A stretch of DNA of 63,332 nucleotides, the filler included, from Octopus bimaculoides (Eukaryota), in the NCBI RefSeq assembly GCF_001194135.2. It is 5 parts of 4 records of this genome, joined end to end, with 100 filler letters (N's around TTAATTAATTAA, not from the genome) between each part and the next. Parts side by side here need not be neighbours in the genome. Positions count along the whole stretch, not along the records: positions 28,395 to 43,076 come from NC_068988.1; positions 43,177 to 57,127 come from NC_068981.1; 3 more parts are not named here. One strand, written 5' to 3'. The position numbers and the translations under genes were made by a program. Below the pieces are notes generated by a model. That model saw only the letters and a list, made by a program, of their open reading frames with translations, had not been told where the DNA came from and ran no database searches. This document shows, one piece after another, positions 42,334 through 43,382 of this stretch (position 1 is the stretch's first letter; every line of letters begins with the position of its first letter).

Positions 42334-42520
42334 GAGAATATACAAATAATAACAACAGACGAGGACAGGTGGTGTAAATAACAAAAGTATATATTAGTAT
42401 GACGCTCGGGAATACGGAAAGTCTTTGACGTTTCGAGCTACGCTCTTCAACAGAAAGAATACGGAGACAAGGAGAAAAACACGGAGAAAAAAAATTGAAT
42501 AGTGTTCAGTCAACGGTCAA
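42332..42520 (-). mobile_element. Short repeat, HHR family 2, with (TA)n tail
   Basis: Reverse complement aligns with 43215-43385. Both copies end in a ttc(t)..ccc(at)n terminus. Confidence 0.75.
42422..42458 (-). ncRNA. Minimal type I hammerhead-like fold with A6U core variant (family 2)
   Basis: UCUUU-CUGUUGA-A-GAGC(gua)GCUC-GAAA-CGU-C-AAAGA. Stem I is a perfect 5 bp, stem II a perfect 4 bp, stem III the palindrome ACGU, and the triplet is canonical GUC. Confidence 0.7.
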
Positions 42521-42963
42521 TCATAATATACACATATATTTCGTTTTGGGATTTGGTTCACAAGATTCTTTATGTGAGTTTTAGAAAAATAAAGAAGGAA
42601 ATGAGTGCATATTTTGCCGGTGAGTGTGTTAAATTATAAGGCACTAAAAGAGAATGACTCTCCTCAGACACAACAGTATATATATGTGTATGTATATATA
42701 TATATGGAAATAGTGTCTGGGTGTTTGTATATAGACCCCGACAGAGATGTAAAGATGCGGCGAAACACAGACTCAGGGGATCTATACGTTGATAACCACA
42801 TCTGGATCGTAGAGGAATTGAACAAAAACCTGCGGAGGCCAGCAATCTCCTCTGGATATTGTGACGTTTGACTATACATATGGACAATCATCGTGAATAT
42901 AGGTGATTAGCCTATGACGATCATGATGATGAATACGCACACATACCTACGCCTGTCTCTATC

Positions 42964-43025
<62 letters not shown>

Positions 43026-43076
43026 GACTGTGATACACGATCCCTATTGATCGCCCCCTCCCACGTTTTTTTTTTC

Positions 43077-43176
43077 NNNNNNNNNNNNNNNNNNNNNNNN
43101 NNNNNNNNNNNNNNNNNNNNTTAATTAATTAANNNNNNNNNNNNNNNNNNNNNNNNNNNNNNNNNNNNNNNNNNNN
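43077..43176. other. Artificial scaffold-join spacer
   Basis: N44-TTAATTAATTAA-N44. Confidence 0.95.
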
Positions 43177-43179
43177 ATA

Positions 43180-43382
43180 TATCATTTGCCATGATAGATT
43201 GCTAGCCACTACACATTCTTTATTTTCTCTCCTTGTTTCTGTCTGTGTTCCTTTCTGTGGAAGAGCGTAGGCTCGAAACATTAAAGACTTTTTCACTTCC
43301 TGAGCATTAAACTAATACATCTGTTTCCTGTCTACACCACCTGTCTTCGTCTTTTGTTTTTCTTTAATTGTGAATTCTTCCC

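Follow-up and report, generated by a model that had tools for sequence, protein, structure and literature searches.

Metazoan Penelope-like elements (PLEs) carry minimal hammerhead ribozymes (min-HHRs) whose distinguishing traits are (i) a short stem I, (ii) a residue lying between position 9 and position 10.1, (iii) a G10.1-C11.1 pair, and (iv) a palindromic 15.2-16.2 segment (Cervera and De la Pena 2014, PMC4209133). All 56 rows of the alignment displayed in that report have A6, though the descriptor behind it required A6. PLE min-HHRs with perfect cores are reported to have no activity as monomers and low activity as dimers (PMC4209133), and why PLEs retain hammerheads that hardly cleave in vitro is treated as an open question (PMC4209133, PMC8557442). 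Natural departures from the hammerhead core include a U3-A8 variant and the A6C hammerhead of phage Bcep176, which cleaves at <0.1 per min (Perreault et al. 2011, PMC3088659). Metazoan non-LTR retrozymes are short, non-coding, AT-rich repeats with a type I hammerhead and a likely PLE origin (PMC7229834; Li et al. bioRxiv 10.64898/2026.07.22.740005). An insertion preference for (TA)n has been reported for octopus Naiad elements (Craig et al. 2021, PMC8557442), and a bias toward microsatellites for Neptune PLEs.

The window analyzed here is a stretch of 63,332 nucleotides from Octopus bimaculoides (NCBI RefSeq assembly GCF_001194135.2), made of five parts of four records with 100 filler letters between each part and the next. 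It harbors three copies of a repeat whose hammerhead fold has U at position 6. The features that define these copies are the following:

42332..42526, minus strand: repeat copy 1, the 3′ end of a longer unit, 5′-truncated in the hammerhead sense and near a young, abundant subfamily
42422..42458, minus strand: minimal type I hammerhead fold of copy 1, read from the sequence and with a relaxed descriptor
42450, minus strand: position 6 of copy 1, U where the published consensus has A; every other letter stays below 2% in all four of the runs surveyed
42357..42376, minus strand: a further conserved block, some 50-70 nt downstream from the fold, identical to copy 2 at 17 of 20 positions (two adjacent 20-column windows)
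42297..42331, no strand assigned: (TA)n microsatellite adjoining copy 1 at its 3′ end, running into an assembly gap
43180..43384, plus strand: repeat copy 2, of a diverged subfamily, with its 5′ end adjoining a gap
43251..43286, plus strand: hammerhead fold of copy 2, with C3 at 43255, U6 at 43258, G7, a 4-bp stem I, an intact stem II, and U17
43385..43419, no strand assigned: (TA)n microsatellite adjoining copy 2 at its 3′ end, read from the sequence
15321..15470 (ends approximate), plus strand: copy 3, old and decayed, 72% identical to copy 2 over 76 nt (E 8e-4)

The minus-strand fold proposed for copy 1 in the preliminary description is confirmed, as is the position it gave for the predicted cut site. 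Stem I comprises 5 bp, in which UCUUU (42458-42454) pairs with AAAGA (42426-42422), and is followed by the core residues C3 (42453), U4, G5 (42451), U6 (42450), U7 (42449), G8, and A9 (42447). An extra A at 42446 stands directly after A9. Stem II is formed by 4 bp, GAGC/GCUC (42445-42435), with a 3-nt GUA loop, and its G10.1-C11.1 pair is G42445-C42435. The 3′ core consists of G12 (42434), A13, and A14 and leads into the A15.1-C-G-U16.1 palindrome (42431-42428), which has no stem III loop; C17 at 42427 is the predicted cut site. A relaxed minimal-hammerhead descriptor with position 6 left free matches the window once, at copy 1, and never in 100 block-wise dinucleotide shuffles. A pattern built from the copies themselves, and therefore partly circular, gives two matches in the window against 0.03 expected. 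Searches with Rfam covariance models at E values up to 10 give 50 matches in 40000-46000, of which none is to a hammerhead family, and no match of any kind in 42340-42520. An alternative register that restores A6, U3 U4 G5 A6 A7 G8 A9 read from 42450, reduces stem II to 1 bp and fails in stem I; its would-be U4 is U, G, or A across the three copies, and the register was rejected by inspection.

Copies 1 and 2 are 75% identical over 142 nt (E 3e-22). Because they lie on opposite strands and are 25% diverged, they are independent insertions, and no cis dimer of the two is possible. The distance between them is uncertain because of the gap at 43078-43178, in which a short TTAA-repeat filler, likely a scaffolding artifact, sits between runs of N. 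The palindrome of copy 2 is broken at its CpG and reads ACAU. The earlier claim rested on these two copies, both of which stand with their (TA)n ends and U6; it had missed the decayed third copy at about 15321-15470, whose core reads C3 A4 G5 U6 A7 G8 A9 (U6 at 15387) and whose palindrome is likewise broken. Position 6 is U in three of the three copies, position 7 varies (U, G, or A), and the extra A after A9 and the G10.1-C11.1 pair are invariant.

The published PLE min-HHR consensus (U-rich, CUGANGAH, G...C, GAAAN, palindrome, NU H; PMC4209133) is matched by copy 1 at all positions except A6, which upholds its identification as a PLE-type minimal hammerhead. Shared features are the U-rich 5′ flank, the 5-bp stem I, the extra A, GAAA, a loopless CG palindrome, H17, and an occurrence as dispersed single copies; opposite-strand neighbors are also reported for PLE min-HHRs, and the Ixodes scapularis (1) row of the same alignment has nearly the layout of copy 1 (PMC4209133). 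The octopus repeat differs in having U6 for A6 and a stem II of only 4 bp, and no PLE open reading frame was linked to it among the 140 frames scanned. The extra nucleotide had been presented as a feature of the CChMVd type, but in PMC4209133 it is a general trait of PLE min-HHRs, and the novelty of the architecture was overstated. The term “new system” is similarly too strong for a fold that differs from a known class by one core letter. In the Bcep176 hammerhead, too, position 6 is naturally altered while the rest of the fold is complete; it is, however, a single sequence with measured low activity (PMC3088659), whereas the octopus A6U is a fixed change in a repeat family with thousands of copies.

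The octopus repeat resembles octopus Naiad PLEs in its (TA)n preference and in the lack of a canonical hammerhead, with Naiad_Ovul being marked HHR_half_core (PMC8557442). In contrast, the Naiad_Obim 3′ end, as displayed in that report, does not contain the octopus-repeat motif. An exact-word comparison of four short repeat motifs with the Naiad, Chlamys, and Hydra consensuses given there finds no matching place, with one or two unrelated single matches.

A second, unrelated repeat family in the window carries a canonical A6 min-HHR of PLE type with the extra A and the ACGU palindrome (450-484, minus strand; 52203-52237, plus strand). Both of its copies are partly decayed, and two matches are found against 0.02 expected. 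PLE-type hammerheads as such are therefore ordinary in this genome. Two more hammerhead-like motifs of the form CUGANGA...GAAAC, with imperfect stems, occur in other repeats at 21310 (plus strand) and 40308 (minus strand). Elsewhere, the window includes unrelated tandem arrays at 53666-54080 (66-bp units), 49991-50172 (100-bp), and 4360-4925 (287-bp), as well as a single-frame protocadherin open reading frame at 61874-63106 (minus strand), of which 411 aa are visible before it is cut by a gap and whose best matches are Octopus proteins (78-86%), in agreement with an Octopus host.

The identity of position 6 beyond the window was surveyed in DNA contigs and RNA reads from public runs under the same species label; three metatranscriptome entries with shares of about 0.1 form no part of this survey. 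The 60 bases around the fold match 2,027 (X1) and 2,921 (X5) DNA contigs and 1,955 (X21) and 1,321 (X23) RNA reads. No letter other than U reaches 2% at 42450 in any of these four runs, and A6 is below 2% among the matched contigs and reads because none of the 12 variant rows at or above 2%, all of which were inspected, falls on position 6. G5, N7, G8, A9, G12, A13, and A14 are likewise free of variants at this threshold. U6 in the subfamily of copy 1 is inherited and not a product of decay, since among thousands of contigs and RNA reads in four runs no alternative to U reaches 2%. The diverged copies 2 and 3 also carry U6, so the trait extends to older subfamilies, and the proposal that U6 is a family trait rather than random decay is borne out by both the runs and the window copies. 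The census describes mainly one large young subfamily, with about 80% of its records at least 95% alike to copy 1 and the G7 of copy 2 below 2% in the matched records; a distant A6 subfamily could be missed because the matched reads mostly belong to the subfamily of copy 1. The independence of the runs is bounded by X1, which may be the source of the window sequence, and by the three RNA runs, which are one study.

Other sites around the core do vary. Position 17 is C, with C17U at 22-35% and C17A at up to 3.4%, and only C, U, and A are seen. U4A, a second change in the U-turn, is carried in every one of the four runs by 4-6% of the matches (27-29 contigs in each DNA run), and A4 is also found in copy 3, while A15.1G reaches up to 2.6% in the RNA runs only. 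T>C and A>G rows are higher in RNA than in DNA, but C>T and G>A rows rise in RNA as well, and no claim of RNA editing is made for that reason. The 57-aa frame of copy 1 has no match in two word-indexed protein searches for mis-called proteins and a single match in a full HMMER search, to an unrelated repeat-array translation, with Atlas matches <0.8.

The repeat is abundant in both DNA contigs and RNA reads. The interval 42332-42631 matches 11,109 of 32.6 million contigs (X1) and 6,846 of 23.5 million (X6), along with 3,597 of 12.9 million (X21) and 3,513 of 12.0 million (X22) RNA reads, and 3,929 of the 11,109 X1 contigs are at least 99% alike to copy 1. A copy number of about 2,000-67,000 taken from the depth ratio was discarded, and only “thousands of distinct contigs” is claimed, because contig depth does not give copy number. 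Depth is flat across the predicted cut site at 42427, with no step, and declines over 42502-42541. Two upstream continuations, of which 30 letters are visible, appear among the loose ends of the RNA reads at 42528 (450 and 646 reads) and 42525 (251 and 195 reads). The flat depth and the two continuations point to a (TA)n-fixed 3′ end about 95 nt past the cut site and to a 5′-truncated copy 1. The 5′ ends are variable and the TA-tailed 3′ end is fixed; the loose-end consensus is TA-rich in all four runs, and both complete 3′ ends adjoin (TA)n. The spans of the roughly 190-bp copies given in the preliminary description are correct, but they do not represent the full unit, as the family continues past 42525-42528 in two ways. 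Because copies run intact through the cut site, they would have been made from templates that were uncut at C17 or re-ligated. Directly beside copy 1, at 42540-42660, a further repeat family begins; it contains an internal inversion, in which 42580/42581 are joined to 42631/42630 on opposite strands.

The RNA data bear on whether the repeat is a non-LTR retrozyme, in which tandem units would be cleaved to monomers, circularized, and reinserted. Such a cycle would accord with the RNA reads that join the unit head to tail via (TA)7-8 (two reads in each of two runs), with reads that go back within the unit (2-6 reads), and with the roughly 280-290 reads per million on the repeat. These joints are rare: of some 3,500 reads in each run, 2-6 support any one joint, in libraries that can miss small circles. 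Retrozymes have tandem arrays, complete cores, and abundant circles (PMC7229834; Li et al.), whereas the octopus repeat is dispersed and TA-tailed, with a variable 5′ end, a fixed 3′ end, and an altered core. The window contains no tandem units of it, where a retrozyme calls for two or more units of 150-450 bp in succession with a complete hammerhead. Of the matched RNA reads, 74-75% continue into unlike sequence, with read orientations about equal, and this pattern fits passive transcription within host RNAs or copies with other flanks. Neither survey shows piled ends, at the predicted cut site or elsewhere, which is a weak test in random-primed, apparently unstranded libraries that show cut ends poorly. 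Retrozyme status, as put forward earlier, is very unlikely given the dispersed copies, the scarce head-to-tail joints, and the lack of piled ends. From loop II (42439), 268 and 178 RNA reads run out of the repeat into a single continuation (98% agreement), which likely represents one strongly expressed locus with a truncated copy.

Conservation of the fold is suggested by the comparison of copies 1 and 2. Of the 37 positions of the fold 33 are identical, whereas the flanks share 98 of 149 (Fisher p 0.005, or p 0.02 when only the 3′ flank is compared). The fold is also the best-conserved 37-column window between the two (34 of 37), and the differences fall on N7, loop II, position 17, a CpG, and the outer stem I pair. 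Selection on the fold is thus suggestive at the level of sequence comparison and is drawn from this one pair of copies. Were the fold instead a neutral relic, meaning that a dead and wholly unselected hammerhead rides along in a successful repeat's end, one would expect what copy 3 displays, namely no excess of fold conservation relative to copy 1 (24 of 37 vs 65 of 119, p 0.34). The whole copy also folds no better than shuffles (z +1.18), and none of nine stem pairs is changed on both sides among the three copies, so that of the expected U6 and stem covariation across copies the former is found in three of three and the latter in zero of nine. Low variation within the main subfamily, too, is what the youth of that subfamily would give, since CpG sites also vary by <3%. 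The excess identity of the fold between copies 1 and 2, and the placement of their differences at N7, loop II, and position 17, speak against a relic, which we regard as improbable. At stem I pair 2.4-1.4, both partners vary in each of the four runs, at frequencies that are low and matched (0.5-0.9% in DNA, 1.3-2.8% in RNA); two stem I pairs in all have low-level changes on both sides, with a chance of 0.05-0.1 and with linkage unseen.

Structure prediction and published mutant data both bear on cleavage ability. U6 is predicted to pair with A15.1. The probability of this pair is 0.97 in a 45-nt fold and drops to 0.28 when 101 nt are folded and competing pairings arise. The resulting 4-bp helix would close the core of copy 1 (-8.7 vs -6.3 kcal/mol), the open-core fraction is 0.005-0.016 in all three predicted folds, and the ACGU dimer helix is predicted to be worth only -1.7 kcal/mol. 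When a type III hammerhead was scanned by mutation, the single mutants of the CUGA turn were all low in activity (PMC9901934); the literature examined yielded no direct data on A6U. Weak or no self-cleavage is, on balance and as judged in part from these models, the likeliest state of the U6 fold because CUGA mutants are low, A6C is slow, min-HHRs are weak, the predicted core is zipped, and a U4A subfamily has been amplified. The near-invariance of G5, G8, A9, G12, A13, and A14, together with H17, is the pattern expected of a working ribozyme and counts against a crippled one.

That same pattern speaks for a working but slow variant, in which U6 would be tolerated and a tandem or trans dimer would complete stem III via ACGU (or AACGUU) and cleave after C17 or U17, a route already suggested for PLE min-HHRs. 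Among the copies, N7 varies and position 17 stays H, and the common C17U lengthens the palindrome. The status of the fold as the best-conserved block between copies 1 and 2, the matched variation at 2.4-1.4, and the low but detectable activity of the natural A6C ribozyme (PMC3088659) also lend it support. Its difficulties are that even perfect-core PLE min-HHRs are weak as dimers (PMC4209133), that CUGA mutants are low (PMC9901934), that the predicted U6-A15.1 pair would compete with so weak a dimer helix, that the U4A subfamily was amplified, and that tandem copies are rare. We consider a working variant rather unlikely.

The explanation we hold with moderate confidence is that these copies form the 3′ end, tailed by (TA)n, of an octopus repeat of very high abundance, in which the Penelope-type min-HHR fold has U6 fixed. 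On this view the fold is likely cleavage-crippled, and a Penelope-like reverse transcriptase acting in trans likely copies the repeat without its being cut. A6U would have arisen before the subfamilies split. U6 may weaken the CUGA U-turn and, through the predicted pairing with A15.1, close the core into a rod, such that amplification would proceed with no need for cleavage. The stem I/stem II/GAAAC fold may have been kept in master copies for a non-catalytic role, for example recognition by the reverse transcriptase, and new copies, truncated at the 5′ end, would be inserted at TA microsatellites through target-primed reverse transcription. Of the two outcomes foreseen in the preliminary description, a fold kept for non-catalytic recognition lies close to this preferred reading of a crippled hammerhead, and a variant ribozyme ranks as its rival. 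A tentative extension, which we find possible but doubtful, is that the modeled U6 lock represents a self-cleaving motif re-purposed as a selected non-cleaving signal (or a switchable one opened by dimerization) for a Penelope-like reverse transcriptase.

The fold is taken to work as a PLE min-HHR does or to descend from one; the link to PLEs is inferred from architecture and TA tails, and by its core letter the repeat falls outside the min-HHR definition. A SINE or an autonomous element could instead be the full unit whose tail is seen here. Near the copies, no tRNA and no PLE coding region were found, and no GIY-YIG domain was detected in the 140 frames scanned (the longest and nearest of 373 complexity-filtered frames of at least 45 aa). 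The three RVT_1 fragments in the window are broken and lie >30 kb away, at 6462-6935 (minus strand, E 1e-7), 9167-9508 (minus strand, E 1e-5), and 1639-1932 (plus strand, E 7e-3). Pattern scans of viral, metagenome, and prokaryote collections gave no match, as expected for an octopus repeat.

No earlier description of the family, or of any min-HHR with U6, was found in the literature covered, which stops short of Lunse et al. 2017 on variants of PLE hammerheads, of Albertin et al. 2015, and of the supplement of PMC7229834, all of possible relevance to novelty, as well as of Dfam, Repbase, and the O. vulgaris library of PMC13282606. Octopus repeat libraries probably contain the repeat, unnamed or as a SINE or Penelope entry, to judge from PMC13282606 and PMC8967140. 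The novelty is one altered letter in a known motif class, and the fixation of that letter, U6, is confirmed. Published descriptors require CUGANGA (PMC4209133, PMC8557442), and U6 families are therefore missed by design.

Were the fold a plain relic, the family would be merely one more octopus repeat. As a young and very abundant family in which a change in the CUGA turn is fixed and the fold is seemingly kept, it provides a natural test of cleavage against structure alone. If the fold has indeed been re-purposed, U6 families would be invisible to CUGANGA-based surveys, and PLE hammerhead folds would have a job apart from cleavage.
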